Shown: positions 1 to 51,380 of the stretch, piece after piece
Layout: the number at the start of each line of letters is the position of its first letter
Position numbering within the stretch: the first letter of the stretch is position 1
Source: Thraustochytrium aureum
Taxonomy: Eukaryota
DNA length: 58,759 nucleotides
Direction of reading: 5' to 3'
NCBI GenBank assembly: GCA_012862495.1
Contig: BLSG01000180.1
Location: forward strand, 1 to 58,759
Made by a program: the position numbers and the translations under genes
Notes under the pieces: generated by a model
What the model saw: only the letters and a program-made list of their open reading frames with translations
Database searches by the model: none
What the model was told of the DNA's origin: nothing

Positions 1-208
1 TCTACTACTACACGACGGCACCAACAGTGCGCGGGTGACTCCCACCGCGCGCCTTTTTTTCTGAAGCCGAGCCTAAGCATGCTTGCCCGCTTCGACTTGA
101 CTGGCTTGCCGGTTGCGGCCCGGCTTGAGGAGGCACCGGTTCAAACCTACTTGGCAGGTTGCTCGGCAAACGAGTGCCGGCTTGACGATCCAGAGTCGCG
201 GAGACGGC

Positions 209-3200
209 TCAGTCTCGCCCTTTACTCGACGTGCGGCGCTTCTTCAGTGGCTTTGTTTTGGACGTCTCCTCCGAAGACTCTCGTTTGTAGCTTTTCGTCT
301 TGCCGCTTGGTGAACCAGAGCCCACTTCCTGTCCCGAACGAAGATCCTGCGCCGGGTGCGTAGGTCTCGTCGAGGCGTCGGGTGACACCGGTGAGCGCGC
401 GTTGGCTTCGACAAGGATCAGTTTCGAGGGCACTGGCTCGACCACCTGCGCTTCGTGGCTGAAGTTGAGTTTGAGGCCTGTACGGTGCGTCAGCGTAATG
501 CTATCCTGACCCTCGACCAACTCGTCAAAGTCCTTCGCATCTTCACAGCGCAGTACTAGGAGCAGCGTGGAGATGTGCTCTGGCAAATGAAGCGAGACTG
601 CGTTAAAAGCGGGATTTGAAGAACTCTCCAGCACGCAGACTGGAACTGGGGGTTTTCCAGGGAGCCGAGGGACGCTGCGCCGAACTTGTTCTCGCACCTC
701 CGTGGCCCACTGAAAACCTGGCCCTTCAGAGTAATAGTCATGCAAGCGTTTTGAAATCGGCTCAACCAACTCAAGTCCGCCACAAGCACGCCCAAAGTAC
801 GTGAGCGCCTCCTCCATGCGATCAAAGCGGGCTGTCGCCTTGGCTGTGCGCGAAGCGCTACCCAGCTTCAAGTCCTTCTTGTGGTGGAAAAAGCGGTTCA
901 TCTTGAGGCACACCAGCCCAGCCTCATCCACGAGATGGTTGAACTCGATGTCCTCCCAAAACGTTTTGGTTGGGTAGAACGCCCCGGCGTCCACCGTCTG
1001 TTTCACATGAAGATACACGAACGAGTGAACAGAGGCGGAAACCGTGAACGGGAGGTCGGGCTCCGCGCACGCTTGAGCGTTTCGGCGAACGCCAATCAGC
1101 CCGTACTGGTTCGCACCGCCTGTCAGTTCTGCTTTCGTCGTGGCAACAGCTTCACTCGTCCAAGACAGTTGGGCACGGCGCAGCCGGGGAAGATCGCTTG
1201 GGCACGCCATGCGTTGCTCCTCGCGCAGAGTCTCAAGAGCAGCATCGTCGTCATCTACGACACTCTCAACCCCAGACATCACGGTGGCGAATGTGCACGC
1301 CTCAGGAGCCTCGGCCTGCGCTTCACCTGGCGCGCCGTCACTGACCAGTCGTCGCTGGTAGCAAACGTCCACATTGTCGTCCAAAACCCAAACCCAGCGC
1401 AGGCCAAGCTCGTATGCAGCTAGTTGCACGAAAAGCCGCGCGTACCCGATTCCACCGCGAGCTGCATGCACCAGCTTATCCTTGCCTGGAGGCGCGAACG
1501 AAGACGGCATACCGAGAATGAGGTAGGCAGAACCATAGGCCGCGACGTAGTCCTCAAACTGCTTGCCGCTTCGAACGACAATGCAGACGACCGTTGCTTT
1601 GTCTGCGCTAGTCTCAGGGATTGCCTTCTCGTAGTCAAGGAGAGCAACACCAGCGCGGCAGTACGAGGGCACGAAGCACCACCGAACAGACCCCACACCC
1701 TCGCACCCGCACACCTTGCGCTGGGCGAGGTCGACCTCCAGCAATGAAACCAGGGACCGCTCGCCGGTAGAGATTTTGCCGCTGAGCTGCTGCGACTGTG
1801 CGTTTAGGCTCACTCGGACGAGGTCCCCGTCTGCGCCGACCGAAAGCCCGTGAAATCCGTTGTACGGCGCCGAGAGACAAACACCGTCGCCTACCAAGTG
1901 AACCTGGCGCACAATGTACTGCTTGGCAAAGTACGACGCGTCGAAGCTCGACGAGGTCGGTCGAGCTGCAACACTTGCGTAGTCTGCGCGGTGCGACGCA
2001 GAGAGCGAAACCGAGACGATGCTCGCGTCATAGGAGCTCAAGCCCATCGACGTCGTCGCAGAGGCGCCATCAGGGGCGCCAGAATCCCAGACCGAGCGCT
2101 GAACAAAAGACAGGAGGGAGCGCACGCGTTGGGTGAAAGTGAGTGGTAAACGCCTATTGGCCGCCGAGTACGACGATCGCGCCGTTTCCAGATCGCGACG
2201 AGCCGTGGTATCACGGAAGAAGTTTTCGAGCGTTTCACGCCACGCACCCGACAAGCGGCCATCAAAGTTGATGCATTTCCTTACCCTGTCCGGATCTTGA
2301 CACGTTGCGCCAACCAACGGCGGGTCAGTGGTCTCACTGTTCTGCAGATCCCTCTCGAGCGACTTAATCTTGTCTCTGCCAGCCTCACTCTGAATCGCCT
2401 CGCCGTCCGCCGACCGAAGATAAGTGAGGAATCGTTTCTTCCAGTCAGTGCCCCTTTCACTGGCGAGGAAAAGGGCAAGGAGTCGCTGTCGAAAGGCCGT
2501 ACGATGTGCCTGGCTCGGGCCCACTTTGTCATACAATCCACGCAGCGCAGGAAACCGGGCGATTCGGTGGTTACAACAAGGTTCCGCCAGTACGGAAGCG
2601 ACCAAGTGTCACGCGGCACCAGAGGCAGCCTTTCGGGAGGCGCTGGAATTGACACCTCGATGGCGTCTTTGAGCAGGCGGATGAAGTGCAAGTAAGTCCC
2701 CGTCTTGCCCTGCTGACACTGCGCCATGAGCAAGAGGCGGCGCGGGTCCGTCTCGGACGACTCGCGGTCATCGTAATGTGGTGAACGGCTTTTGCTCCCG
2801 CTCCCACTTTCATCACTGCACGTGGGGCGCTGCTGGCGATAAGCACTCAAGTCGTGCAGCGGATTTGTCACGACCACCTCTCCGATGGACGTCCGCTCAG
2901 CAGAGGGCTTCGCAGCCTTCTTTCCCTGGCCACGACCTGACACGTAGAGGTCTATCGGGCCGGGAATGCACTGGTCGACGCGCCGACGGCCCCAGGCGTC
3001 TCGGTACTTGTGCTCAACAGCCTTTTGCACTTGCGCATTGAAGCGCGCAGCGTTCATCAACACCGTGGGAAGAATATGCAGGTAGCGCTTCGCGGTCCAC
3101 GTCCCAAAACGAGCTCTGGGCACGGTAGAAGGCGGCTTCAGCAGTTCCTCGCGCAGTCGCGACCTCAGTTGCAGCTCAGAGTCAAAGTGGAACCGCACCT

Positions 3201-6200
3201 CGTTTCCTGGATCAAGCACCGCGTAGCTCCCACCCTTGGCAAGGAAGGCCCTCGCACTCCTGTCAGCGCAGAATTGCGACAGCTGCTGCTCGAGCTCAGT
3301 GTCGTTCCAGTCTCCAGCGCCCGGATTCTGCGTGTCGACTTCGGCGCGCCTCGTCACTTCAAAGTTTGCGAATGTCGCCTCATCTTCGTTGAGACCAGGG
3401 TAGCGGCAAACTCGTCCGAACTCCTGCACAAATGTTGAATACGTCGGCGAGGAACGCAGGCGAATGTCCAGGAAACGAAACGAGTGCGGGAAAGTGTCGC
3501 CCATGCGCCCCTTCTCGCAGAGGATCACGATCGTTGGCAAGTTTTCTAGGTCCTCGTACTTGGCAGTCATCTGCACGGGCTTCGGCTCGCGGTTCGCTTC
3601 ACGTGCATATCGTTCCTCGCAGGCCTTCGCTTCAGCCAACGATTGATTAACACGGTCCACAAGAGTCTCTTTCGTGCCGGTACCTCGGTTCTGCTTCGAT
3701 GGATGCCTCAGGTCACGTTCAAGCGCCCACGGCTCCAGTTGAGAGAAGAGGTTGGTTGCCCGCCGCATTGCTCTGGCGCTCCTAGTAGGGCTGCTGCANN
3801 NNNNNNNNNNNNNNNNNNNNNNNNNNNNNNNNNNNNNNNNNNNNNNNNNNNNNNNNNNNNNNNNNNNNNNNNNNNNNNNNNNNNNNNNNNNNNNNNNNNN
3901 NNNNNNNNNNNNNNNNNNNNNNNNNNNNNNNNNNNNNNNNNNNNNNNNNNNNNNNNNNNNNNNNNNNNNNNNNNNNNNTCGGCAACGACGCTCAGCACAC
4001 CGCCGTTGACTTTCATTCGAGAGGCCGAGCTTTTTGAGGGCGCTGCGGAGGCCGTCCTGAATGGACAGGTTTTCGTCCGTCTCATAGACACGGATTACAG
4101 CCATCCGCCCCGTGCGGAAGCGGGGGTGTACGTCCAACAGGTCGTGCAGGAGGCGATCGGTCTCGTTGTACCAAGCCTCTATGGTATTCGCCTGATTTTC
4201 TGTGAGATCCTCGCGATTGCATGCAAGCTTCTCCGAGATAACGTACTCCAAGCACATGCGACAGCGGTCGGGGGACATAGCATTGCTATTTTCTTGCAAG
4301 CCCTCCAACTTTTTCACCCACTTTTCGCCGAGTCTCGCACACAGCGCACGTTTTCACCGAGCGCGACTCAAGCTCGTCCCAGGCTGCAACAAGCGTGGCC
4401 TTGAGTAGCTCGTTAAGTACGTGCTGAACCTCGGCCCTCTCGACACCGCCGCCGATGCTAAACGTGCCGACCTGCAGATCTGGCTGGGGTTCGAGTTGCG
4501 GCCACAGCAGGTGTGCAATGTCGAGGTGGAGTGTGAATTTTTGAAGGAGGGCCTCATTGAGAGCAAGCTGACCAACGTCAGCTAGCTCCAGCGGTCGAAA
4601 GATAGTCTCGCGTTCTGTTTCACAGTCCCAGAGGCGCTCGTGGTCAACGCGGTAGACTGCCAAGTACGTGAGCGAGAGAAGGTACTCGGCCATGATGATG
4701 TGGCCGTCGAAGAGAGGCGTCGACTTTGCAACTTTGATGCGATCCGCTCTGCGATTCTTGCTCGTCCGCTTCCCGAAGACGCGCTCAATGCGAGCACGGA
4801 CAGCGTCGAAAGAGTCGTCCCGAACAACCCTCTGCCGTCGACGCGGCAGGCAATCTGCTCCCACGTCTTGTTCCGTATCACACAAGAGTGGGATCCCCCT
4901 CGCGCGCACAGAGTAGGACTTCTTTCGCCCATCGCGCTGGACCTCGCTCCACGCCGCCTCAATCGCACGTTCTTCCGTTGCAAATCCGAGCCAGTGCATC
5001 AACCCACGCTCAGCTTTGAACGCACTCTCGCAGATGCGCACTTCGCCTGGGAGGGTCAGTGTCACCTTCTCCCTCTTGACGTTGAAGAAGCTTCCAGTTT
5101 TGCCAGCTCTTTCAACAACCCCAGCTGGGATCGCGTCTCGCACGGCTTTGTCAAGGACTTGGCAGAAAGCCGAAAAGTCATGCATTGGGTAGCGGAATCT
5201 GCACCCATGGAGTCCTTGGGGGTCCACCTCGACGATGGTTTCGGCACTGCCGCGAGCCTTCACGGCGAGTTGCAACGGCCCGACACACGCTGGTACAGCC
5301 CACGTTGCACTTTCCACAAAGTAGTCCATGCTGCGATAGAGAGAGGTCTCGTTGTGCCATGCGACCACGTTCGCTTCATCGATGCGGGACTTGCTTGTCA
5401 GCACATTCTGTGGAGTCGCCGAGACCAGTAGTCGGAGGACGTTTCCACCCTTTAGCCTCTTATTGTTGAGAAACCAGTCGTGCGCCCCACGCTTTGTCGG
5501 TGCGTAGTGGCACTCGTCCGCGATGATGACCAAGAGCGTTTTTGGATCCGAGGCTTGACTCTCCATCCATTTCCGATGATCGCTCATCACTACGCGGGGG
5601 ACTTTGGTGTGCTTGAGAACGCGACCGCCGTCCAATTTTGCCCGCATGACGCGATCTTCCGTCTGCGTCTGGAGAGAGTTGAAGTTCGGAGTAAGAATGA
5701 CAAAGGCCACACTCGAAAATCGCGCAGCCCATGCCGCCTTCTGCGAACCGAAGAGAGCTGTCTCGGCGATTTGAAATATTTGTTTTGCAACCTCGCGCTG
5801 TTCTGGATGCGCAACGTCCGGTTGGTCCGAGACGGTAAACGCCTCGCCTGTGGTCTCGCGCCTGCCGTCGACGTTAGCAACGGTAACGACAACGCAGAGC
5901 ATGACTTCCTTCTCCTCATTGGAGAGTTTGTCGTCTCTTTCCGCGTCGCGCGACATCGTGACGCTCGCGCCCGGCCCCTCTTGGGCCGTCCGGCCAAAGT
6001 TTGGCAGTCCGCGGGAAAGCTGCTCCCATGCCTTGCTCTTGCACGCCTGCGCAGCAGCGTCATCAGCCTTTGTGAGCAGCTCATTGGCCAGTGTTTCGCG
6101 TTCGCCTTGGTCTTCGGGAAGTGGCGGCATGACTAGCTCAAGTGTTCCTTCTTGCTCATTTCCCTCTCCCAAGCCACGCGTCACATACAGAACTTGTATG

Positions 6201-6381
6201 GGGCGATCCTCCGCTTGCAACTCAGTCTCGTCTTCTGCCTCTTCCGCAAAGTTGGCATCGTCCTGGCTGGCGAGGCTTTTTTCGAGCAACTGTCGAACGA
6301 AGTCGGCTTCATCGGACGCCACTGCCAGCAGCACACTTGCAACGCCCTCGCCATCAGGGTTGAGAATCACGACTATGCGGT
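209..6381 (-). CDS. GREB1-like protein: circularly permuted SF2 helicase fused to a C-terminal TAGT (JGT-like) glycosyltransferase; 5' end lost in a gap, two apparent frameshifts
   Basis: Three overlapping minus ORFs (4286..6370, 2281..4317, 209..2605) read as one protein. Motifs in N-to-C order: Ia-like ILTPNFNSLQTQT, motif II IIADECHY (~5507-5518), motif III LVSATP (~5415), motif V ILCEKGRMGDTFP (~3500), motif VI QEFGRVCRY (~3401-3427), Walker A LLMAQCQQGKTG (GKT 2701-2709), then GT-A-type motifs GGIGYARLF (~1445), WVLDDNV (~1380) and WEDIEFN (~950). Confidence 0.8.
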
Positions 6382-7091
6382 NNNNNNNNNNNNNNNNNNN
6401 NNNNNNNNNNNNNNNNNNNNNNNNNNNNNNNNNNNNNNNNNNNNNNNNNNNNNNNNNNNNNNNNNNNNNNNNNNNNNNNNNNNNNNNNNNNNNNNNNNNN
6501 NNNNNNNNNNNNNNNNNNNNNNNNNNNNNNNNNNNNNNNNNNNNNNNNNNNNNNNNNNNNNNNNNNNNNNNNNNNNNNNNNNNNNNNNNNNNNNNNNNNN
6601 NNNNNNNNNNNNNNNNNNNNNNNNNNNNNNNNNNNNNNNNNNNNNNNNNNNNNNNNNNNNNNNNNNNNNNNNNNNNNNNNNNNNNNNNNNNNNNNNNNNN
6701 NNNNNNNNNNNNNNNNNNNNNNNNNNNNNNNNNNNNNNNNNNNNNNNNNNNNNNNNNNNNNNNNNNNNNNNNNNNNNNNNNNNNNNNNNNNNNNNNNNNN
6801 NNNNNNNNNNNNNNNNNNNNNNNNNNNNNNNNNNNNNNNNNNNNNNNNNNNNNNNNNNNNNNNNNNNNNNNNNNNNNNNNNNNNNNNNNNNNNNNNNNNN
6901 NNNNNNNNNNNNNNNNNNNNNNNNNNNNNNNNNNNNNNNNNNNNNNNNNNNNNNNNNNNNNNNNNNNNNNNNNNNNNNNNNNNNNNNNNNNNNNNNNNNN
7001 NNNNNNNNNNNNNNNNNNNNNNNNNNNNNNNNNNNNNNNNNNNNNNNNNNNNNNNNNNNNNNNNNNNNNNNNNNNNNNNNNNNNNNNNNNN

Positions 7092-8253
7092 NGAAGGCCT
7101 TGGCGATCGGACTCGGACTCGGAGGGCTCTTCAAGTTGGTCTTGCTTGTTTTTCTTGAATCAAGATGTTGTTTTTCAAGATGAAATCGCCTCGCCTTCTC
7201 TGGATTTGTTTCGTGCGCGGGGATACCACCTATCCGTTGCGTTGCTCTTGTGCGTTTGTGTGTGTGTCGCGCAACGCTCAGAAGGACAAAACACCTCTCC
7301 TGAAGTTTTAACCTTTTTGATGAAACTCTCATCTATCATCCTCACGGAAAAAGTGCGTGGCTCGAAATGCTCCTCGGAAGCCGAGGGCCTCGGCTATTCC
7401 GGGAAAATATCGATCCGTCATCGCAACGTGGAGCAGCTCTCCGGCGCGATTGGCTTGGAGGACCTCCATCGAATTGAGAACAAGATCGCGAAGACTTCAC
7501 GCGCCAGCCATGCCGTTTAGCAGCTTCACGAGATGCCCCATCCGCATTTGAGGCCTGCTTGGGCACTCCAGAACCATATGCATGGCCACGTTCCAAATCT
7601 TGCAAGGACCGCAAACGTCCTGCAAAACCTGCCCCGGACATCCAAGCTGTCAAGTTCAGCTCCAGCCTGAGTAACGCGTGCTTGAGGGTCCCAGGAGCAT
7701 GTGCCTTGTCCGCAGCGCCACTTTACTTCATCGCACGAGACATGGATAGGCTGCTACCAGCGCCCAATTGAAATGCAGGCTGCAACGAAGCGGCGAGCAG
7801 GTGCTCTACTAGGCAAGGACTTGGATTGACCAGGTCCCGGAAGGCTCGTCCCAGAATCGCTCGAACTGACTTGCGAGGCCCGCGGTCTTCATGAGCTGGG
7901 CAGGGCTGGGCATGACTGGGTCCACGTGCTGCATCGTTGGAGGCACGGCGCCGTGAAACGTGCTGAGCACAGCGGCTCGTGGCAGCCCCACTTGCTCCTC
8001 GTACGCCTGCGAGTATAATCCCGCGACGGGGTCCATCGTTGCAGAGGGGCCTGCCTCGACGCCGACGATAGGTGCGCGGTTGGCGTGCTCGGCGAGCAGC
8101 CCCACAAGTCCGCCGGGCGGGCGCAGCGCGGCGGCGGTTGCCCATGAGCCGACGCTGCCTTGCGCCACCCGCACCTCGGCAGCAGGCACCCGCAAGCAAA
8201 CGCCGCGGCCAGCCCGCTGCGCATCTCGCAACAGCCTGGACTTTCGAAGTGTG
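7092..8253 (-). other. Fragmented coding-like sequence, possibly the N-terminal part of the GREB1-like gene or a separate degraded gene
   Basis: Same strand as the GREB1-like gene and flanked by gaps. Protein-like stretches (7809..8231; MEVLQANRAGELLHVAMTDRYFPGIAEALGFRG near 7350-7470) are broken by stops and frame changes. No recognisable domain. Confidence 0.3.
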
Positions 8254-9454
8254 NNNNNNNNNNNNNNNNNNNNNNNNNNNNNNNNNNNNNNNNNNNNNNN
8301 NNNNNNNNNNNNNNNNNNNNNNNNNNNNNNNNNNNNNNNNNNNNNNNNNNNNNNNNNNNNNNNNNNNNNNNNNNNNNNNNNNNNNNNNNNNNNNNNNNNN
8401 NNNNNNNNNNNNNNNNNNNNNNNNNNNNNNNNNNNNNNNNNNNNNNNNNNNNNNNNNNNNNNNNNNNNNNNNNNNNNNNNNNNNNNNNNNNNNNNNNNNN
8501 NNNNNNNNNNNNNNNNNNNNNNNNNNNNNNNNNNNNNNNNNNNNNNNNNNNNNNNNNNNNNNNNNNNNNNNNNNNNNNNNNNNNNNNNNNNNNNNNNNNN
8601 NNNNNNNNNNNNNNNNNNNNNNNNNNNNNNNNNNNNNNNNNNNNNNNNNNNNNNNNNNNNNNNNNNNNNNNNNNNNNNNNNNNNNNNNNNNNNNNNNNNN
8701 NNNNNNNNNNNNNNNNNNNNNNNNNNNNNNNNNNNNNNNNNNNNNNNNNNNNNNNNNNNNNNNNNNNNNNNNNNNNNNNNNNNNNNNNNNNNNNNNNNNN
8801 NNNNNNNNNNNNNNNNNNNNNNNNNNNNNNNNNNNNNNNNNNNNNNNNNNNNNNNNNNNNNNNNNNNNNNNNNNNNNNNNNNNNNNNNNNNNNNNNNNNN
8901 NNNNNNNNNNNNNNNNNNNNNNNNNNNNNNNNNNNNNNNNNNNNNNNNNNNNNNNNNNNNNNNNNNNNNNNNNNNNNNNNNNNNNNNNNNNNNNNNNNNN
9001 NNNNNNNNNNNNNNNNNNNNNNNNNNNNNNNNNNNNNNNNNNNNNNNNNNNNNNNNNNNNNNNNNNNNNNNNNNNNNNNNNNNNNNNNNNNNNNNNNNNN
9101 NNNNNNNNNNNNNNNNNNNNNNNNNNNNNNNNNNNNNNNNNNNNNNNNNNNNNNNNNNNNNNNNNNNNNNNNNNNNNNNNNNNNNNNNNNNNNNNNNNNN
9201 NNNNNNGGACGGGCAGCTTTGCGTGCCAGGCCCGAGCGGCGGGCGGGCGGCTGCGGCACGTTGGGCAGCCAGTCTCGGTGGTCCAGTCGCCAGCCGGCCA
9301 GGACGCGCATCGCGCTCTTGTCGTCCGCGACGCGCGCTCGCCAGCCCGCGAGGCCGCCTGGGCCTCCGTCGCTCGGCGCACCCTGGTCCCCCAGAGCGTG
9401 CCCTCCCTGCCCAAGTCCCTGACAGCCTCAGCGATCCTTCTCACATCCCCTCGG

Positions 9455-9557
9455 CCAATAGGGAACCCGCACGGCCCAATCCGTCCCAATAGGGAACCCG
9501 CAGTGCGATTCCCCACACAGCCGCGGCCCCTTATCGGCAAACCACCCGCTTTTTGAA
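9455..9557 (+). promoter_or_regulatory. Tandem CCAAT boxes plus a CHR-like TTTGAA element
   Basis: The 17-mer CCAATAGGGAACCCGCA occurs at 9455-9471 and 9486-9502 (31-bp spacing). A third CCAAT is at 9476-9480 and TTTGAA at 9552-9557. Confidence 0.4.
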
Positions 9558-9851
9558 AGCTAGCGAAAGCTGCCAGCTCTCGCACAGTGTAGTCAAGACT
9601 TGTCTGCAGGATTCTTGTTCGTTCTCGGAAGTGGCGCATTGAGGAGTCGCTGAGGGCTGCGACCAACCAGAGCCGCAACGGAGCCGCGCAAGAACGAGCA
9701 GAGCTGCAGCGCGCCTGGCGGAGGCAGCCGAGCGCAGGACGCGAGGCCGCGGCGCCTCGTTCTTGGTTTCTGGTTTCTTGGTTTCGACGAGGCAGGCAGG
9801 CAGCCAGCAGAGGCTCGGACGCACGCCGCGCTGCGTACGTACCTCGCTGGT

Positions 9852-10366
9852 TTGTTCCGTTCTGCAGACCTCCAAGGTCTCGTGCGCCGCGCCCGCGGCC
9901 TGTTCGAGAATGATGGCAGCGGCCTCGAGTGCGGCGACGGCGCGGCAGAGCGACACGGTGGCCGCGCAGCCGGTGCTCGGGGGCGGGGACGGCCGCTGGG
10001 CGAACCGGATGACTGCGAGGTTTTTGCAAGGGAGGATGAGAGGCAGGACCTCGCCGCCTACGGGGGCAGGGGCTTGGGCCCGAGAGCGCCGCTGGAGTGC
10101 TCCGGCGCGGCGCCGGGGAGCGCGGACGGGCGCAGGGGGTCGAGACGGACGACGAAGATGATGCCAGCCAACAGCCATTCTTTGAGATGGATGAGGAGGA
10201 CCCCGAGTTCGAGGCGCCCGCAAGGGACCGGCTCCCGGACGCCGACGCGAGCCGCGCTGTGGCGCGAAGCACGGAGGCGGCGCGGAAGGGCAAGCGGCCA
10301 GCCCCACGCAGCGCTAGCGCCACTGCGGCTCCGACTGCGGCCGCCACTGCCACCGCGAGTCGGTGA
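9852..10366 (+). CDS. Hypothetical acidic, low-complexity protein fragment running toward a gap
   Basis: Overlapping plus frames with an acidic tract (ETDDEDDASQQPFFEMDEEDPEFE) downstream of the CCAAT cluster. Frame uncertain. Confidence 0.25.
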
Positions 10367-11345
10367 TCNNNNNNNNNNNNNNNNNNNNNNNNNNNNNNNN
10401 NNNNNNNNNNNNNNNNNNNNNNNNNNNNNNNNNNNNNNNNNNNNNNNNNNNNNNNNNNNNNNNNNNNNNNNNNNNNNNNNNNNNNNNNNNNNNNNNNNNN
10501 NNNNNNNNNNNNNNNNNNNNNNNNNNNNNNNNNNNNNNNNNNNNNNNNNNNNNNNNNNNNNNNNNNNNNNNNNNNNNNNNNNNNNNNNNNNNNNNNNNNN
10601 NNNNNNNNNNNNNNNNNNNNNNNNNNNNNNNNNNNNNNNNNNNNNNNNNNNNNNNNNNNNNNNNNNNNNNNNNNNNNNNNNNNNNNNNNNNNNNNNNNNN
10701 NNNNNNNNNNNNNNNNNNNNNNNNNNNNNNNNNNNNNNNNNNNNNNNNNNNNNNNNNNNNNNNNNNNNNNNNNNNNNNNNNNNNNNNNNNNNNNNNNNNN
10801 NNNNNNNNNNNNNNNNNNNNNNNNNNNNNNNNNNNNNNNNNNNNNNNNNNNNNNNNNNNNNNNNNNNNNNNNNNNNNNNNNNNNNNNNNNNNNNNNNNNN
10901 NNNNNNNNNNNNNNNNNNNNNNNNNNNNNNNNNNNNNNNNNNNNNNNNNNNNNNNNNNNNNNNNNNNNNNNNNNNNNNNNNNNNNNNNNNNNNNNNNNNN
11001 NNNNNNNNNNNNNNNNNNNNNNNNNNNNNNNNNNNNNNNNNNNNNNNNNNNNNNNNNNNNNNNNNNNNNNNNNNNNNNNNNNNNNNNNNNNNNNNNNNNN
11101 NNNNNNNNNNNNNNNNNNNNNNNNNNNNNNNNNNNNNNNNNNNNNNNNNNNNNNNNNNNNNNNNNNNNNNNNNNNNNNNNNNNNNNNNNNNNNNNNNNNN
11201 NNNNNNNNNNNNNNNNNNNNNNNNNNNNNNNNNNNNNNNNNNNNNNNNNNNNNNNNNNNNNNNNNNNNNNNNNNNNNNNNNNNNNNNNNNNNNNNNNNNN
11301 NNNNNNNNNNNNNNNNNNNNNNNNNNNNNNNNNNNNNNNNNNNNN

Positions 11346-13680
11346 CAAAACAGGGCAACATTCGCGCCGTCCAGCGAAGCAGAGCAAGTGCGGCACCAAA
11401 GGCTCGCGAGCCCTGCCTTGGACGGCCCTGGGCTAACAACCGCGAATCCAGGATTCGCGGCAACATTGAGAACCCCAAACCCGAGTTGGACGGGGTTGCA
11501 GCGCTGCCGCAACTCTACCAGCAACGGTTTGTCAACACTGCCGGCGCCCGAAACGTAAACCTTGCCGCGCCCCATCGCGCTCTGCAGCACGCCGTCCTGC
11601 CCGCGAAAAGTAATGATGACCTGCTCGCGCACGCTAACAACACAACCGGCGGTTTCCGCAAGGGCCGCTCCCACAGGAACCAGACCCTGCACTACTGAGC
11701 GCCTGGGCGTCACGGGGGAGCGCTCAAAGCCAGGAACAGCCGGCGACGCTGGCAGGTCCGCTCGACCAGATTCGAGGCGCGGTTCGTCCGTCGCAGGGTC
11801 GTTTGCCTCGGCAAATGGGTTGTCCTCGAACGCTCCTCCAAGCGCGTTTATCTCGGTACCATTCAGAGGCGTCGAGCCGCCAAGCGCCGCATCGGGCACG
11901 CCGCGCTCCAGTGCTGCCGCCTCCGCCGCAGCAGTAGCAGCGGCGCCGTCGTCCGCCCAGTCGGTCTCCGCGATTCCGTCCGCACAGGCGACTAGATCTG
12001 CAAACGGATCGTCGTGCATGCCGTCCCCAAACGCCACGTCAAACGCAAGGCAGCCCTCTGTCGCGGCTGCCGCCTCATGTTCTGTCGCGGATCCCGCCTT
12101 CAAAGTGGCATCTTCGTCGTGGCGTCTAGGGCCCGTATCGGCGATGGCTTCGACTGGAAAAGGTTCAGCGTCCGAAGAGAACGGGTCCGCAGAAAACGCG
12201 TCAGGGCAGAACGGGTCCGTCGAGAAGGGGTCCGCTTCGAACGCGTCGGCCCCGGCCGGCTCCAGCTCGGCATCAGCCGAGAGTTTTGTTCCGTCCTCGC
12301 AAAATGGCGCCAGTGCGGCTTCTGGGGATGGCCCGTTGCTCTCGGAGGGGAAGGCAGGGTCAAAAGAATTCTCAAAGTCCGCATCAAAGCCAGCGCCCGC
12401 CTCCTCCGCGGCGGGCCCGATGCAAAGCGCAGGCTCGACGGGCAGTAACGGCGCGGTTTTCGCGTCTGCTGGAGCGGGTGGGGCCTCGAACGCGTCACCA
12501 AAGTCTGCCTCGAAGAGCGCCTCGAGGCCCGCCGCGCGGTCCGCTTTGCGCTGCTTGCGCAGCTCCTTTCTGCGCTTGAGGGCTTTGCGCGACGACGCGG
12601 CCGGCTCGCTTGTGATGGCATCTTGGCCCTCGCTTGGCTCGGCCGCGAACGGCAGGCACCGCTCGCTAGGGATGGAGAGGTCGCGCTCGCGTTGCAGCAC
12701 GGGACGCAGGCCGCGCCACCCTTCCTGAGCGCGCAAGAGCAGTGAGTTCCACTCCCGTTCGCGCAGCGCCTCGTCCAGCGCGGGCCCGCAAAGCGCTCCC
12801 GGCAAAACGGCCCCTCCGCCGCGAGCTGGGGACTGCGACCCGTTGCTAGAGGGCGGGGTCCGGTCGCCGCCGGCACCGCCCGTCGACGCGGCCAACTGGG
12901 GCGCGTCGGCCCCAAACAGCGCTGGCTTGGCCACGTCGAGCGCGTCGCGACCCGTCAAAAGAATCTTTTGCAGGCCCAAGTAGAGCTCGAGAAAGCTTCG
13001 GTCGAGGCGTTTGGCGCCCACCTTGCCGTCGCAGAGCGCGAGAACGAGATCCAGGACGTGACCGAGGACAGCAGCGGAGGCCCAGACGGTGTCGCGGGCT
13101 ANNNNNNNNNNNNNNNNNNNNNNNNNNNNNNNNNNNNNNNNNNNNNNNNNNNNNNNNNNNNNNNNNNNNNNNNNNNNNNNNNNNNNNNNNNNNNNNNNNN
13201 NNNNNNNNNNNNNNNNNNNNNNNNNNNNNNNNNNNNNNNNNNNNNNNNNNNNNNNNNNNNNNNNNNNNNNNNNNNNNNNNNNNNNNNNNNNNNNNNNNNN
13301 NNNNNNNNNNNNNNNNNNNNNNNNNNNNNNNNNNNNNNNNNNNNNNNNNNNNNNNNNNNNNNNNNNNNNNNNNNNNNNNNNNNNNNNNNNNNNNNNNNNN
13401 NNNNNNNNNNNNNNNNNNNNNNNNNNNNNNNNNNNNNNNNNNNNNNNNNNNNNNNCATACTCCACCACGCCTGCGCCGCGTCAGGGGCCATTCGCGGTGC
13501 CAAACGGGTCGTTGTGCCAAGCAAGGCCGCCCGAGTCGCAGGAGCGAGCGGCCGATGCACAAGCAAGTGCACAAGCGCAGCGTCCTGCGCGCTGGCTGGC
13601 CTTCGACACGTACCTGAGTGCTGCTGGCACACCACGCGCCCGGCCTCGTCCACGACGGCGGCCGCGACAGCGCCGCTCAT
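11346..13680 (-). CDS. Adaptor medium-subunit-like protein (longin domain, DPF/NPF-rich linker, mu-homology domain); TCUP/TML (TSET) or muniscin-like; 3' end in gap
   Basis: ATG at 13680. A GT-AG intron at 13613-13471 (CTGAC branch-like motif) splices into the long ORF frame, giving MSGAVAAAVVDEAGRVVCQQHSGVVEY. A longin-type helix (KRLDRSFLELYLGLQKIL) is followed by an acidic linker with repeated DPF, NPF and FDADF motifs, then the MHD-like start VVSVREQVIITF...GKVYV. Confidence 0.55.
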
Positions 13681-15292: not shown

Positions 15293-16056
15293 CTAAAGAC
15301 GAAGCGAAGAGTCCCACACAAGCAGAACGGAGAGCGCCGCGGCAAGCGCGGCCGCCCGGCCTTGGCCCGGGCGGCTTGCTGCTCCGACCTTGATGTGGAT
15401 GGTCTCGGTAAACACATCAGTGGCAACGGCCTCCGCGCTGTCAGTCTCCACCGCGAAGGCCTCGCACTTGCTTACGCCACGCCAAAACGTGACAACGTTG
15501 TCATATTCCTCGACCCAAATTGTCAATTTGTACCCAATGACGTACTTGGACGCATCGGTGCGGGTCAGTGGGCAATATACGACGCTATTATCGCCAGCGG
15601 TCGCCCTTCGCGCGAAACGAAATCCCATTCCTTATTCTTGAGCGAGTCAAAGCTGAGCACCACGCCGACAGTTTCCAAGCTCCTGCTCATGTCACAGTCA
15701 AAGACGAGGACTTCGTCGACCTCGAACGTGAGCCGCCGGTTCGAGCAGCAGGTGATGCAATAGGTTTTGTTGACGGGAAACTCGGTCTCCGCGTTGAAGT
15801 CTACAAAGACGCCGCTCAGGTCGTCCGTGTTTCCAGCACTAGATGCGCCCTCGTTGTAGTTGCACGACAGCATCCCGATCCCCGCAAAGCACCGAAACGT
15901 TTGCTGGTCCTCTTGCGGGTCTCTCGGTTCGCTCGGCTGCGCCAGCCTGCCCCATACCTCCTCCGACCAAGAGTTCGCTGGCCTTTGCTGGCCCACCGTG
16001 CTCGTCAAGCTTGTCCCCAGCAGCGCCGTCGTCAAGGCCAGCCGCAGCGGCGCCAT
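15293..16056 (-). CDS. Secreted, probably GPI-anchored Cys-containing protein (frameshift near 15630)
   Basis: Signal-peptide-like start MAPLRLALTTALLGTSLTSTVG. ORF 15565..16194 joins ORF 15293..15628, which ends in a hydrophobic tail (AAALAAALSVLLVW). Confidence 0.6.
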
Positions 16057-16596
16057 CAGACCGGACGTCAAGACCGAGAGTCTTGCACGCTCGTCCCGCT
16101 CTCCAAAACCCCGAAATGCGGACCGAGCTGCCAATCCCCGTGGCGCTCGACCTCGTCTGCAAGGCCTGCCTGCATTCCATGTCTGCCGTCGCATGGCTGG
16201 CCCAAGTTTCGAAACGAGCGCATTGCCCCTCGTCTACGTTACCGTTTCGATCGATCCGTTGACAATCGGTCGTTGCAGCGTGGAGAACTAACTCTTCTCG
16301 CGCATCATCATGTCAGGCACGAACGGCAATCTCAGCTCTCGCTCACGCTGTGTGAGCTGGCTTTCGCACGTCGCTTGCGGCGAGGCACTTTTAGGTCGGC
16401 CTCCTTCGCAGCGACTTCCGGCATCGCACAGAGGCGTAATCTCTCAGGTCCGCGCGAGTTGATTAGCAAACCTGACATGCTTGACTACTGGAGCTTGAGA
16501 AAGCAGTTGAATCGTCGCGAATGCGGTTTCCGCTCTGCCATCCGAGCGGCAAAGCAGCAGCGCTGGCAGTACCGCAGCGCGGCCACGACCGGCACG

Positions 16597-18304
16597 ATGA
16601 GCAAGGTGGGCCCGCTTACTGCCGGACGAAGCGCGGCTTCCGAAGCGCCGCCAGACGGCCTGGCACAGGTCAAGTCAGCACGGCGGTCTTGCATGCAGGA
16701 AGTTCGCGCTGCGACATGGTTGACAGCCGCAATTGTTGTGCATGGAGTGCCGTGCTTGCTCGCGCTACTCCTGTTCTGGTACCCAGTGTATCTCACAACG
16801 CCGTTTGCCGTCGTGCAAGTAAACCGAACAGTCATCACGCCCGAGTTCTCCAAGCAGCCGCCGACGCAACCCGTGTTCGACATCCCCTTGTACGGGTACC
16901 TACCAGCTTGCTTTATGTTGCTGGTTTGCTGCAATGCAAAGGTGAAGGCTGGGATTCTCCTGGGCAATTTGGCGGGCTACCTCCTCCGCCTTGTCGTCCA
17001 TAAAACACCATACCAGCCAATCGGAGTCAGCTTTCCTTTGATAGGAGTCGCGATTGCGCTTTGGATCACGCTTCCCCGTGGAACCCGGCTGCCGCACGAG
17101 GCGATCAAGCAGACGCTAGCGGTCGTGGTTGCCATCTGCCTCTTCATGCTTTCAACCGCGCTGCGCGGCAGGGGTGAGATGGCCAAAGTGGTCGAAATCT
17201 GTGTAGTCTTTCCAGTCGTGCGGGAGCTAGGTTTCACGATCGTCAAAGACAGCACGATGTCGCTGGCGATAGGCAACGCCGTCACCGGAAACAACGCGGT
17301 GCGTTTGCGGCGCAAGTACGTGTGGCTCTTCTTTCTGTGGTTTCAATTCCAGCTCTCGATGCTCGTTCGGTTCTTCTTCTCGGAGCTGAGAAGCAGTTCC
17401 GTTCTCGTCGCTGTCGTCATCCTCCAGTCGGCGCTCGAGCTGGCGATGCGTCTTTCTTTTGTGTGGCGAGACACGCAAATGTTGCGCCTCAAGGCGTGGC
17501 TGTGCGGCGCTGGGCCATATTTGCGATTCGTCTCGGCAGTGCAGTCCTCCGCTTATGCGACTCGTTTTTCCTGAGTACAAAAGTTCACGCGGAGGCACAG
17601 CTCCGTCGCAAACCGAGTTGACCGAGGAGGGTCTCAAGACGGCTAGATACGCGTGCTACGCGCAGTTCGTCATCGGGGAGATGGTTTCGGAGTACGCTGC
17701 CATCTTCATGGTCCCTTGCGTCATCTTGATGTTTCAGAAGCGCAAGTTTTGGGTTACCTTCGATGCCTACAATGGGATAGACGNNNNNNNNNNNNNNNNN
17801 NNNNNNNNNNNNNNNNNNNNNNNNNNNNNNNNNNNNNNNNNNNNNNNNNNNNNNNNNNNNNNNNNNNNNNNNNNNNNNNNNNNNNNNNNNNNNNNNNNNN
17901 NNNNNNNNNNNNNNNNNCTGGGCTCTCGGAATTCGTGCGCCCTGCAGTTTGTCGGAGAGGTCATCGTCGACATCATTTGTGTGGTCATAGAGCAGCGCCG
18001 AGGTCTTGATATTGAAGCAGCGTGGATGAAGCGATGCGACAGGTCCCCTCTCACCTTTGCAATGCTTTTGGTGCTCGTGGCTTGGATCGTGGGCCCAGCC
18101 GTGCTCGCTTTCGCCTCAATGCGCCATTCCTTCACCGAATGCGAGGGTCGCGATCTGTGCTACTGCATCGACTCGTTCGCGTTGGATTCGATTCAGCGCA
18201 AGCTCTGTGACATGGTCTACCCCAACTCCAGCGGGATGCCGCTTGACATGGCTTGCGCCGCCGCGGCCAACTTTACGGCCTGCATGAGCAGCTTTGGGGC
18301 TTAG
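16597..18304 (+). CDS. Multi-pass membrane protein of unknown function (frameshift near 17560, internal gap)
   Basis: Many hydrophobic helices across ORFs 15568..17574 and 17459..18304, with a Cys-rich C-terminal tail. ATG chosen at 16597. Confidence 0.65.
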
Positions 18305-32445: not shown

Positions 32446-34270
32446 AGCAGCCCCTGGCCCTCGCTGGCGGCACTGCGGCCCTTTGCCGCGCCGCGCATGG
32501 CCGCTCTAGCCCTGCTGCCGGCACGTCAAGCATAGCGTAACAAAACATTGGACAGTCAAAGCCGTGCCTTCCGCCGCGCAACCCTCGCACCCGTAGCCGC
32601 CTTGTGCGTTGCACTCTCGCTGTTGATCTTGATCGAAAGCAGCGCGCTCTGCCGATCGACCTGCTTTCCCGCGCGCGCTGCGCGTTCCGGGCCGCGACGC
32701 CAGCCCGATGAGAATCGGCACCGTCACGGCGGCGCGCGCCACGAGGGCTTTCTTGCAAAACCCCAAGCCAAACCCCCCCATCCGGCGCGACATCGCACGG
32801 CAACGCGGCACGAGAGGCAGCGGGAGCGGCTCTGAGCGCGACGCGCGAGCCCTACTCGGGTGCTGTGCGAGGCGCCTTTTCAAGATGGGCGGAGAGGCGC
32901 GCAAGCGACCGAGGGAGGTGCAGGATGCTCGAAATGTGGCAGACCACCACGACGACCGGCCAAGCGCAAGGCAAAGGNNNNNNNNNNNNNNNNNNNNNNN
33001 NNNNNNNNNNNNNNNNNNNNNNNNNNNNNNNNNNNNNNNNNNNNNNNNNNNNNNNNNNNNNNNNNNNNNNNNNNNNNNNNNNNNNNNNNNNNNNNNNNNN
33101 NNNNNNNNNNNNNNNNNNNNNNNNNNNNNNNNNNNNNNNNNNNNNNNNNNNNNNNNNNNNNNNNNNNNNNNNNNNNNNNNNNNNNNNNNNNNNNNNNNNN
33201 NNNNNNNNNNNNNNNNNNNNNNNNNNNNNNNNNNNNNNNNNNNNNNNNNNNNNNNNNNNNNNNNNNNNNNNNNNNNNNNNNNNNNNNNNNNNNNNNNNNN
33301 NNNNNNNNNNNNNNNNNNNNNNNNNNNNNNNNNNNNNNNNNNNNNNNNNNNNNNNNNNNNNNNNNNNNNNNNNNNNNNNNNNNNNNNNNNNNNNNNNNNN
33401 NNNNNNNNNNNNNNNNNNNNNNNNNNNNNNNNNNNNNNNNNNNNNNNNNNNNNNNNNNNNNNNNNNNNNNNNNNNNNNNNNNNNNNNNNNNNNNNNNNNN
33501 NNNNNNNNNNNNNNNNNNNNNNNNNNNNNNNNNNNNNNNNNNNNNNNNNNNNNNNNNNNNNNNNNNNNNNNNNNNNNNNNNNNNNNNNNNNNNNNNNNNN
33601 NNNNNNNNNNNNNNNNNNNNNNNNNNNNNNNNNNNNNNNNNNNNNNNNNNNNNNNNNNNNNNNNNNNNNNNNNNNNNNNNNNNNNNNNNNNNNNNNNNNN
33701 NNNNNNNNNNNNNNNNNNNNNNNNNNNNNNNNNNNNNNNNNNNNNNNNGGCCTTCATCGGGGCATCCCTGCACGCCGCAGGAGCCGCGCGCCCAGGCGAC
33801 GCCCGGCCGGCCGCGTAGAAACCGGAATCACTAAGCAAACCATCCAAGATAGCAAAGGCATCAACAGCTGTCTGGCGTGAGTTGGCCACGGGACGTCCGC
33901 GACGAGCTTGCTTGTTGGCTGACGACCGCCCCCAGATCGAAATCGTTGCAGCGACCAAACAACCCCGTGGCGAAACAGACGAGCGAACAGTGCCGGCCGA
34001 TGCCTGCGACTCGGGCTGCGCGCCCAGGAGGTCGGCGAGCGGCCGCCTCGCGTTGTTTCGCCGAAACCCCCGACCGCCTGCCTGCCTGCTGCCCTGAGGA
34101 GACAGCCATTCCTCGAAGGCGACCAGGCAGGGCGCAGCCTCTCGCGACGGCTGGCTGGCGCCGCTGCGGCCTTGGTCGTCGCTTGCGACCTTGGGCCTTC
34201 GCGCTGTCGCACGCGCTGACGCCTCGCCTCCACGGTTGCTGGCTGGCGCGGCGCGGGCTCCGCTGCGGCC

Positions 34271-35604
34271 ATGGCTACGCAGCTCGCCACGCAGCGGCGC
34301 GGCGCAAAGACCGCGGGCGAGGACGGTGGTGCCGAAGGGCCAGTGGAGCGACCAGGCGGTGGCGCGCCGAAGGCGCCTGTGAAGGCGCCTGTTGAGCGCG
34401 CGGCGAAAGGGAAGCGAAACCCGAACGAGACCAAGCTGCAAAGGTTTGTTGGCGCCGCCGTTGCGCTGCTGACGCGACACGCAGGCAAGTTCGGGACGCT
34501 GTTGTTCCTTCTCGGCCTCGTCTGGGTCTGCCTGTTCCCGCTGGTGTGCATCACGACCGGGGAGCTCAAGTGCCGAGGCACCTACTTCTCGGAGAATGCG
34601 CTGTCGCCAATGTCGGGCGAGAGCGGCTTTCGAGCCTCCACCATTGCGCAAGCAGAGCTTGCTGACAGCGCGTTGGCGGCCGCGCAGTCTGCGGCAGCGC
34701 GCAAGGCTGTGAGCGCCAACCTGCTGCGCTCGGCCGGCCTCGATGCGCAGGTCCACGACCAAACCGGCGCCGTGTACGGGGTGCTGTGGCCTCTTGGCGG
34801 CGCGGACCGGCGCGAGGCCGTGATCGTCGTGGCGCGGCTCAAAGCTGTCCGGGGAGGCGAGACGTGCTGCTCTGAGGCGGGAGCCGCAATCGCCTTGGCG
34901 CGCGTCCTGAGGGAGAGCGAGTGGCTGAGCAAGAACGTAATCGTGCTGCTCGCGTCCTCGGGGGCCGAGGTGCGCGACTGGGTGGCCCACTACCACTCCA
35001 GCGACGCCCGGTTTGCCAACATGACGCGCGCAGGCGGCATCATCGGGGGCGTCGTGCTGGACTTTGGCGTGCCTGCAAGCAAGCCAGTGGCCGGCTTGGG
35101 CGTTCTTTCTCAAGGGACAAACGGCCAGCTGCCCAATCTGGACCTCGTCAACGTAGCCGTGATGGTTGCGCAACGCCAGTCGGCCCCTGTGCTTCTTTCG
35201 AGGAGCAGCTCGCAGGGCAGCGTCCGCGGGGGCTCAACCGGATCCTAGCGAGCGCCGCGCCGCACATGGATCGCGGGGCGCAGGCCGCAGCGCAGACCTG
35301 GGCTTTGCGGATGGACCGGATGGGTCAGTTCCTCCGCGGGGCTGCGTTCGGGCCGACGGGCTGGCACTCGCACCTACTCCCGTACGACATTCACGCGATT
35401 ACGCTCGCCATGGTCGAGCCCGGCGATTTGCTGCCGCACGGCGCAACAGGCAAGTCCCGTCGCGAGCTGGTCGAGGTGGCGGCGCGCTCGACGGAGCACG
35501 TCGTGCGCAGCCTGAGCAACCTCGAGGAGAGGTTTCACCAGTCGTACTTTTTGTACATTTTGCCTGATATTGGGCTTTTTGTCTCGATCGGCGAGTTTTC
35601 GGGC
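34271..35604 (+). CDS. GPAA1: GPI transamidase subunit Gaa1 (frameshift near 35230; 3' end in gap)
   Basis: TYFSENALSP, WLSKNVIVL, GTNGQLPNLDLVN and RSLSNLEERFHQSYFLYILP...FVSIG. Confidence 0.92.
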
Positions 35605-49362: not shown

Positions 49363-51380
49363 CTAGAGAGCGGACTTGCCGCGCATTGGAGCCGAGTCGC
49401 TGTAGCCTGGCGTTTCCATCAGCGACCGCACATAGCCGTCAAAGTCCTGGGGCTTGGGCTTGTGCGTGGCAATGCCAAGCTTGTACGCCCGCTCGGCGAC
49501 CTTGGCCGCCAGGTTGGCCGAGACCTCGCGAATGCTCGAGAGCGGCGGGTACATCGAGCCGCGGTCCCGGTCCGCCTCGGTGACCTGCTCGGCGAGCGCC
49601 TGCGCAGCGACGTAGAGCAGCTCATCCGGGACCACCTTGGCCTTGGCCGCCAGCACACCCAGCCCGAGCCCGGGGAAAATGTAGGCGTTGTTGCCCTGGC
49701 CAGGCTCGAAGACCTTCTCGGTGCCGTCCGGCAGCGTCACCGGGACGCGGCCAAACGGCGAGCCAGAGGCGAAAATGCACCGGCCGCCGGTCCACTCGTA
49801 CGCCTCTGCGGCCGTGCACTCGGCTTGCGACGTGGGGTTGCTGAGCGCAAAGATGAGCGGGGTCGGGCACGTCTCTGACATGAACCTCAAGATGCTCTCC
49901 GTGAAGGTCTTGGGGATGGCCGACACGCCAATGAGCGAGGTGGGCTCGAGCATGCGCACCGCGTGCTCGAACGGAACGTCGCTCTTGTCTCTGATCTCAA
50001 AGTCAGTGCCCTTCAGGTGCGCCACGAGATCGTCCGGGATGGCGTGCGCAAAGTCCTGCTTGTGGTGGGCCAGCTTGTCCTTGCGGCTCGCGGAAACGAG
50101 GCCGCGGCTGTCCACAAGCCANNNNNNNNNNNNNNNNNNNNNNNNNNNNNNNNNNNNNNNNNNNNNNNNNNNNNNNNNNNNNNNNNNNNNNNNNNNNNNN
50201 NNNNNNNNNNNNNNNNNNNNNNNNNNNNNNNNNNNNNNNNNNNNNNNNNNNNNNNNNNNNNNNNNNNNNNNNNNNNNNNNNNNNNNNNNNNNNNNNNNNN
50301 GTTGCGCCGCGCCTCCTCGATGGAGAGCGAGCCTTCGCTCTCCTCGAGAATTGCATGCGCGATCAAGTTGGCAATGCCGGTGCCGGCCTCGCCAGCGCCG
50401 AGGAACACAAAGCGGTGGTCCGCGAGGCGGCTCACGCCGCCGTCCGAAGCGGACGTCTCCGGGAGCGAAGCCAGGATACCGGCCAGCGTCACGCTCGCAG
50501 TGCCCTGGATGTCATCGTTGAAGGTCGTGTAGCGCTCGCGCGAGTTCTCGAGCAGGTGGAAGGCGGTGCTGTTGCCAAAGTCCTCAAACTGGATGAGAAC
50601 GGTGCGGCCCCAGCGCTTGGCGGCAGCGGCCATAAACTCCTCGATGAGGCTGTCAAATTTTTCGCCGCGCACGCGCTCCTGGCGCAGGCCCATGTAAAAT
50701 GGGTCCTCCAAGAGCTTCTTGTTGTTGGTGCCCACGTCGATGCAGACGGGCAGGCAGTGGTGCGGGTTGATGCCCGCGCAAGCCGAGTAGAGCTGCAGCT
50801 TGCCGACGGGGATGCCCATCCCGTTGGTGCCGAGGTCGCCCAGGCCGAGGATGCGCTCGCCGTCCGTGAACACGATCACGCGCACCTCGTCTTCGGGCCA
50901 GTTGGCCACCACCTGAGCGACGCGCCCGGCATCATTGATGCTCACGTAGAGCCCACGCGGCGTGGTCCAGCGAAAGCCGTACTCTTGGCAAGCTTGGCCC
51001 ACGGTCGGCGTGTAGACGATCGGCATGAGCTCCTCGACGTTGGTGCAGAGCAGCCGGTAGAACAGTTGCACGTTCCGGTCCAGCAGACTCATCATGTACT
51101 CGTACCGCTCGATCGGTTCGCGCTTGCGCCTGATCTGGTCCAGCTCGCGCGCGACCTGGTGCTCGATGTCCTCCACCACGGGCGGCAGAAGGCCTTGGAG
51201 CCCGAGCGCCTCGCGCTCCTCATAGCTGAACGCCTGGCCCTTGTTCGTCTTAGGGTTGACGATGAGGTGGTGCCCGCTGCCGGACCGGACGATCACGTCC
51301 GAGACGTCCTCGTGCTTGGTCATCGCGTGAAACTTGGCGGAGACCTTGGACATCATGCCAGACATGCGGTGAAGCGACAT
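49363..51380 (-). CDS. Malic enzyme (NAD(P)-dependent, decarboxylating)
   Basis: NKGQAF, PIVYTPTVG, TDGERILGLGDLG, QFEDF, FNDDIQGTA, GAGEAGTGIA, FALSNPTSQAEC, ASGSPF and GQGNNAYIFPGLGLG. Confidence 0.97.

Follow-up and report, generated by a model that had tools for sequence, protein, structure and literature searches.

A GREB1-like gene of Thraustochytrium aureum joining a motif-intact, circularly permuted SF2 motor to a TAGT glycosyltransferase domain: a candidate DNA-modifying enzyme

The GREB1-like family is described as pan-eukaryotic, with Heterokonta and other protists already named among its carriers (PMC7968844). Animal GREB1 and GREB1L carry a circularly permuted superfamily 2 (SF2) helicase domain, cpSF2-GREB1, followed by a TET-associated glycosyltransferase domain, TAGT. 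Human GREB1 transfers O-linked N-acetylglucosamine (O-GlcNAc) to oestrogen receptor alpha and is mostly cytoplasmic (PMC7968844), and its helicase is described as inactive (PMC7968844; PMC6163654). The phage DNA glycosyltransferases of the GT-A fold and JGT, the base J enzyme, share the active-site motif R...DDD...EDY/F (bioRxiv 10.1101/2023.12.21.572611), and phage TET-associated glycosyltransferases sit in clusters with a hydroxylase (PMC8256090; 10.1101/2023.12.21.572611); PMC8256090 and PMC12695648 serve as background only. Here, positions 209-6381 on the minus strand of Thraustochytrium aureum contig BLSG01000180.1 (GCA_012862495.1, 1..58,759; the whole stretch analysed, termed the window, of which 8,324 of 58,759 bases are N) were found to be a single gene encoding a GREB1-family protein with the same order of cpSF2 and TAGT and an intact set of motor motifs.

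With slightly less than even confidence, we propose that the permuted SF2 motor tracks duplex DNA on ATP while the TAGT domain sugar-modifies a hydroxymethylated pyrimidine. The C-terminal Walker A would fold back and complete the ATP site, the motor would hydrolyse ATP and move along the duplex, and TAGT would pass a sugar from a nucleotide-sugar to the base, both the acceptor and the sugar being presumptive. The protein would be nuclear, with the organism's own chromatin, transposons or viruses as candidate DNA. What was observed is one continuous frame, the order of the domains, the set of motifs, a GT-A fold and phage kinship; each activity in this scheme is put forward from these, and the proposal draws on the Pfam domains, the kinship with phage DNA glycosyltransferases, the conserved motor, its duplex-translocase fold, the bromodomains of some relatives and the basic C-terminus. 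If it holds for DNA, base-J-type chemistry reaches beyond the known lineages and is coupled to an ATP motor; for the ancestral activity of the GREB1 family, an intact-motor version without a readable intron is a useful test case.

As assembled, the gene is broken into three long frames plus a short fourth one, with a 180-N gap among them. The frames were checked against contigs of four public runs from two studies (the best 4 of 6 runs with sequence there, 8 being listed), none of them recorded as RNA. The gene and the corrections are as follows.

209..6381, minus strand: readable part of the GREB1-like gene, about 2,010 codons once corrected, with the stop at 209-211 and the start codon in the upstream gap
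2554..2555, no strand: missing base, an assembly error; present in the contigs of 3 of the 4 runs (one study)
3799..3978, no strand: 180-N assembly gap, replaced by 43 letters in the contigs of 4 of 4 runs
4011..4011, no strand: extra base in a T run, an assembly error; absent in the contigs of 4 of 4 runs
4350..4351, no strand: extra base in a T run, an assembly error; absent in the contigs of 4 of 4 runs
6382..7092, no strand: assembly gap, likely holding the first ~120 codons; contigs of 3 runs extend into it

By our arithmetic, all pieces fall in a single frame after these four changes (three indels and the 180-N gap). In the fourth run, the contig stops at 2554/2555 with 8 loose letters compatible with the inserted base; because this run is near-identical to the window yet shows the corrections, the frameshifts are assembly errors and not strain decay. 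No intron was seen, since the run contigs show no joint besides the two N gaps. The product is collinear with residues 122-2053 of the Hondaea fermentalgiana protein P0001 at 44-60% identity, and as residue 122 falls at position 6379, the gap 6382-7092 probably contains some 120 residues, for a complete protein of about 2,100 aa; 30 loose letters at 6381 are open in the gene's frame when read by eye. The contigs of three runs of one study, possibly RNA, cover the gene but not 6975-7291, where the DNA-type run has cover; as these are contigs from a single study, no conclusion on transcription is drawn. The three frameshifts and the gap could also be taken as a broken pseudogene, or as separate helicase and transferase genes, and certain relatives are themselves incomplete or rearranged (P0004 lacks TAGT, and the gene is fragmented at many metagenome loci). 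This explanation is largely refuted and highly improbable: the four runs correct two indels and the gap, three of them correct the third indel, and the collinearity with P0001 holds over the whole length. The single long protein read by the initial annotation across these frameshifts, which were corrected here from the public-run contigs, was therefore borne out.

Pfam cpSF2-GREB1 matched three consecutive pieces of the product (E 2.8e-47, 1.7e-8 and 1.2e-50; 162, 34 and 173 bits, cut-off 26.2) and Pfam TAGT matched the fourth, C-terminal to the helicase (E 5.1e-12; 46.6 bits, cut-off 27.5). As these matches lie above the curated cut-offs, the domain assignment is not due to chance. The features below are given along the protein; the SF2 names are those we take to belong to the respective segments.

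5810..6381, minus strand: N-terminal region, conserved with the Hondaea relatives, without Pfam match
5411..5809, minus strand: first RecA-like lobe, with Q-type motif, Ia, Walker B and III, its own Walker A absent
5798-5809, minus strand: Q-type motif, by sequence motif
5660-5701, minus strand: motif Ia, by sequence motif
5507-5527, minus strand: Walker B IIADECH (DECH), by sequence motif
5411-5425, minus strand: motif III VSATP (SAT), by sequence motif
4361..5389, minus strand: long insertion between the motor lobes, with no usable match in the protein atlas
3400..4170, minus strand: second RecA-like lobe, with motifs V and VI
3487-3513, minus strand: motif V, by sequence motif
3400-3426, minus strand: motif VI QEFGRVCRY (QxxGRxxR), by sequence motif
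2695-2721, minus strand: Walker A QCQQGKTGT (GKT), downstream of motif VI, a circular permutation
863..1684, minus strand: TAGT glycosyltransferase domain, GT-A fold, by Pfam and structure model
1655-1657, minus strand: TAGT arginine, which we take as the probable counterpart of motif R
1436-1456, minus strand: GGIGYAR, sequence motif
1370-1390, minus strand: WVLDDNV (DDN), sequence motif
941-958, minus strand: WEDIEF (ED), sequence motif
212..862, minus strand: C-terminal region without family match or usable atlas match, with a basic cluster at its end

The order is thus Q-type, Ia, Walker B, III, long insertion, V, VI, Walker A and TAGT, and motifs I, II, III and VI of the SF2 translocase set are intact. 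The full SF2 motif set claimed initially was present at its stated place on the minus strand, and the GREB1 family architecture (cpSF2-GREB1 and C-terminal TAGT in one frame, with a permuted Walker A) was confirmed by Pfam and motif order. A pattern search of 60 relatives of at least 1,400 aa (15 cluster duplicates and later additions excluded, and about 26 of the 60 being similar coral-type sequences) found Walker A, Walker B, motif III and motif VI kept in 51, which indicates a motor conserved as an enzyme. Walker A follows motif VI in 53 of the 60 and precedes Walker B in none (0/60).

The TAGT domain of T. aureum was modelled with a predicted local distance difference test score (pLDDT) of 83 and a predicted template modelling score (pTM) of 0.84; the GT-A fold of the model and the Pfam matches agree with the assignment made initially. 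Solved GT-A enzymes matched it at a Foldseek E of ~1e-5 at best and a VIA Z of 12-14 (8bz4_A: Z 13.1, root-mean-square deviation (rmsd) 3.2, 190 aligned), and predicted viral proteins matched it better (E 8e-11 to 1e-7 for the best 16 matches), the named ones including five TAGT-domain proteins and one beta-glucosyl-HMC-alpha-glucosyltransferase. The sole PHROG match of the domain was phrog_842, again a beta-glucosyl-HMC-alpha-glucosyltransferase (E 2.5e-8). By profile and predicted fold, the transferase is nearest to the phage DNA-base glycosyltransferases, and with these and probably JGT it shares the TAGT clade; the arginine, the DD pair and the ED pair are retained in the order of the R...DDD...EDY/F motif. 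JGT and the solved DNA glycosyltransferases were not among the listed fold matches of the model, which excludes nothing, and a sequence search gave no relatives of solved structure. Stand-alone TAGT relatives were represented by one 381-aa match, probably a fragment. Two long viral proteins in BFVD, A0A6G6XN95 (890 aa) and A0A2H4UV75 (644 aa, Bodo saltans virus), match the model at E ~1e-7.

The readable part of the protein has no transmembrane segment, its hydrophobicity never exceeding 1.65, and Hondaea P0001 likewise has no hydrophobic segment. Together with the basic C-terminal cluster, which resembles a nuclear localisation signal, this argues against an enzyme of the secretory pathway.

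The modelled motor is the compact one of the relative at metagenome locus L020 (24 sequences; pLDDT 79, pTM 0.77). The strand and helix of the C-terminal Walker A have a pLDDT of 82-89, in line with this segment packing back into the motor fold. The top Foldseek match was HsdR of EcoR124I (E 4.3e-5), alongside LGP2, MDA5 and RIG-I, and VIA-align returned tied Z-scores of 9.2-10.1 for 6jde (a DNA repair protein), HsdR (Z 10.0, rmsd 5.9, 343 aligned), DEAH RNA helicases and FANCM. On the basis of this model, the motor is of SF2 type and closest to duplex translocases (HsdR, RIG-I-like helicases, FANCM), and its fold matches leave both DNA and RNA motors as candidates. The helicases of RIG-I, MDA5, LGP2 and Dicer among the best Foldseek matches (E 7e-5 to 1e-3; HsdR 4e-5) also suggest an alternative in which the motor works on duplex RNA or detects foreign DNA or RNA and the transferase marks nucleic acid or makes a signal, as do the LRR, WD40, ankyrin, caspase, kinase or OTU fusions carried by 10 of 72 relatives together. 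We regard it as distinctly unlikely: the fold matches are weak (template modelling score ~0.3) and common to most SF2 motors, the literature covered holds, in the parts available, no report of a TAGT acting on RNA, and no extra domain occurs in 58 of the 72 relatives, a set with many fragments.

Several observations weigh against DNA tracking coupled to base glycosylation. The top Z-scores of the motor are tied, DEAH RNA helicases included, RIG-I-like double-stranded RNA helicases rank beside HsdR, and the motor model comes from the L020 relative and not from the T. aureum protein. The literal motif of the DNA glycosyltransferases is not kept: the third aspartate is an asparagine and the Y/F an isoleucine (R...DDN...EDI, not R...DDD...EDY/F), a difference that also separates the protein from JGT as its motif is described, and DDN is the usual form across the GREB1-like relatives. 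The target of human GREB1 is a protein, and the enzyme is found mostly in the cytoplasm (PMC7968844). No TET/JBP match was obtained in 216 window frames (34 plus all 182 other stop-free stretches of at least 110 aa beyond position 6400, in readable sequence), fused to any of the 72 scanned relatives (0/72, methylases likewise) or in 40 open reading frames (ORFs) scanned from related loci. Finally, Sphaeroforma arctica has a GREB1-like member with all motifs and is reported to have no genomic 5-methylcytosine (5mC; PMC11244446), so that the route from 5mC to 5-hydroxymethylcytosine is not the general substrate of the family.

A thymine-derived route, through hydroxylated thymine, is unaffected by the Sphaeroforma case, and foreign DNA, RNA or protein are also possible substrates. 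The initial annotation had suggested a base-J-like DNA glycosylation system while noting that no TET/JBP partner was visible in the window. The latter holds for the 216 frames of the readable part. As to the former, the GREB1 architecture, the single gene, the intact motor and a TAGT akin to phage DNA-base enzymes stood, and the base-J-like 'system' is so far unsupported, no hydroxylase partner having been found in the window frames, the 72 relatives or the related-locus ORFs. One form of the proposed DNA modification would be a base-J-like mark set on the host genome with the help of such a TET/JBP partner. Unlike the phage enzymes, which are clustered with a hydroxylase, the T. aureum transferase is fused to a motor and has none found beside it, and a literature search on TET/JBP or modified pyrimidines in thraustochytrids found nothing relevant.

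The same lack of a base hydroxylase in the window frames and related-locus ORFs is compatible with the main rival, a cytosolic or nuclear protein O-glycosyltransferase like human GREB1, in which the motor would recruit the enzyme to protein targets bound to nucleic acid or switch it on. By analogy this is a possible though doubtful reading. O-GlcNAc transfer to oestrogen receptor alpha is the only activity of the family found measured (PMC7968844), alignment of the protist-type TAGT profile to a cnidarian GREB1 has a probability of 97.9%, and the kinase, OTU and caspase fusions of relatives act on proteins. Against it, the nearest profile and fold matches are phage DNA glycosyltransferases, and the motif-intact clade keeps the motor motifs whereas the human helicase is described as inactive, a processive motor being better suited to a polymer substrate.

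Comparison with animal GREB1 indicated that the T. aureum protein is, by its domain content, not GREB1 proper. Animal GREB1 has the GREB1_N, GREB1_2nd and GREB1_C domains, in contrast to four Hondaea relatives that lack all three. A search of the four T. aureum pieces at E up to 1 found neither GREB1_2nd nor GREB1_C, the N-terminus lying in the gap; both domains are present in the cnidarian GREB1 P0031. The T. aureum protein has GKT, DECH, SAT and QxxGRxxR, as opposed to the inactive motor of human GREB1, and P0031, a GREB1 proper, keeps only Walker A by the motor-motif patterns.

Seventy-two relatives, many of them fragments, were scanned against Pfam: 13 carry an extra domain, one is GREB1 proper and 58 have no extra domain. 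The readable part of the T. aureum protein differs from the 13 in showing none. The fusions were with ankyrin (3/72, one below the cut-off), caspase (2/72, both Guillardia), OTU (2/72, one below the cut-off), bromodomain (2/72), LRR (1/72, Capsaspora), WD40 (1/72), kinase (1/72, Cyanophora) and EF-hand (1/72) domains. The bromodomain fusions, as domain assignments, point to chromatin. A bromodomain lies N-terminal to the motor in P0121, P0160 and P0188, the first of which has in addition a CW zinc finger match that stays under the cut-off of Pfam.

Rearranged copies were also observed. Hondaea P0032 (4,793 aa) has two complete helicase-transferase units, either a real fusion or merged tandem genes, and one Hondaea record has a partial duplication, besides this two-unit record and the TAGT-less P0004. 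Planoprotostelium P0036 (2,887 aa) has two sets of motor motifs, and two Guillardia copies have near-adjacent locus numbers on equally long contigs. Part of these fusions and duplications may be gene-model errors in draft genomes. Eukaryotic immune proteins typically show repeat sensors, caspases and lineage-specific duplication. An unlikely but bolder explanation is that the motif-intact GREB1-like proteins are eukaryotic defence enzymes, in which the ATP motor would load on viral or transposon duplexes and glycosylate them or their bound proteins to silence or flag them; animal GREB1 would then descend from them as a domesticated form with a dead motor. The patchy occurrence across supergroups would be accounted for in this way, as would the duplicated and rearranged copies of Hondaea and Guillardia, the domain fusions and the member in a species without 5mC. 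If the protein acts on invading nucleic acid, it represents a new kind of eukaryotic defence enzyme and recasts the origin of GREB1/GREB1L. No paper was found that tests any protist member or proposes a defence role, among literature that covered few subscription papers.

As a side observation, the L020 contig (L020:1-16194, 39% GC) holds an OTU, cpSF2 and TAGT gene (P0157) among ORFs of 245, 415, 615 and 1,334 aa without Pfam match; it is gene-dense and could be a virus or a mobile element. The only Pfam matches of neighbouring ORFs at the related loci, most of which are short, were RINGv, enoyl-CoA hydratase and an ABC domain.

The nearest relatives among the matches listed were six Hondaea fermentalgiana records annotated 'GREB1-like protein', namely P0001, P0002, P0004, P0032 (GBG30820.1), P0033 (GBG35105.1) and P0034 (GBG35118.1). 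They share architecture and motifs with the T. aureum protein, with 44-60% identity over the whole length, and differ in number: there are six records, one of which holds two complete units while another lacks TAGT, against a single copy in the window. The kinship of this one gene, together with the gene layout, fits a thraustochytrid-type lineage. In a quick tree of 58 rows, which excluded near-duplicates and proteins without either anchor motif and had an unresolved backbone with long branches, the T. aureum protein grouped with the three Hondaea rows that had passed a motif filter (Shimodaira-Hasegawa-like approximate likelihood ratio test, SH-aLRT, 98); no order of events or transfer was drawn from it.

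A search with the first half of the motor gave 187 representatives at E <=0.001, of which the best 150 were listed. Those named among 30 checked were Hondaea, Phaeothamnion, Heterococcus, Mallomonas, Chlorochromonas, Guillardia, Cyanophora, Planoprotostelium, Naegleria, Willaertia, Capsaspora, Sphaeroforma, Stephanoeca and Sanderia, and a separate search added relatives from Acropora and Stylophora. The other protist relatives have, as here, cpSF2 followed by TAGT and Walker A after motif VI. A metagenome scan yielded 38 GREB1-like loci out of 156 pattern matches, with the gene in several pieces at L002-L005, L007, L009, L012-L015, L017, L025-L030 and L034-L036, where introns, decay or assembly error may be the cause. 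In scans that need near-exact motifs, no relative was confirmed in viral contigs (0/600, 0/38 and 0/42 pattern matches), prokaryote genomes (0/19 pattern matches) or annotated phages.

GREB1-like genes are thus already known across protists, and the surprise expressed initially was overstated, the Heterokonta range being in print and the closest relatives already annotated. As a gene find, the locus is ordinary, with both domains in Pfam. The family was reportedly predicted and defined by Iyer et al. in 2013, who may already have described motif-intact protist forms.

The window is a eukaryotic contig poor in introns, and its genes are ordinary, among them ribulose-phosphate epimerase, glutaredoxin, Mog1, an adaptor medium subunit, DUF1295, Gaa1, a Myb protein, a response regulator and malic enzyme; the GREB1-like gene is present in single copy. 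No convincing terminal repeats of a transposon were found in 1-13000. The GC content at third codon positions (GC3) was 0.65-0.69 for the GREB1-like gene, 0.78-0.90 for eight Pfam-matched neighbours and 0.64-0.71 for three other ORFs; low expression or later arrival would both fit the lower value of the GREB1-like gene.

Malic enzyme (49366-51476) is cut by an N gap and Gaa1 (34220-35604) matches in two frames, which suggests like assembly errors elsewhere in the window. Upstream of the gene, 7330-8253 is covered by contigs of the same runs and its frames have no Pfam match. Further along, 11348-13099 on the minus strand is a 584-aa acidic low-complexity frame without Pfam match, with a 15-base tandem repeat at 12168-12242, and 15541-17571 on the plus strand is a 677-aa open frame (GC3 0.64) without Pfam match on either strand. 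At 9455-9500, a 16-base word starting CCAAT was seen by eye to occur twice, ~30 bases apart, possibly a promoter element of the next gene.

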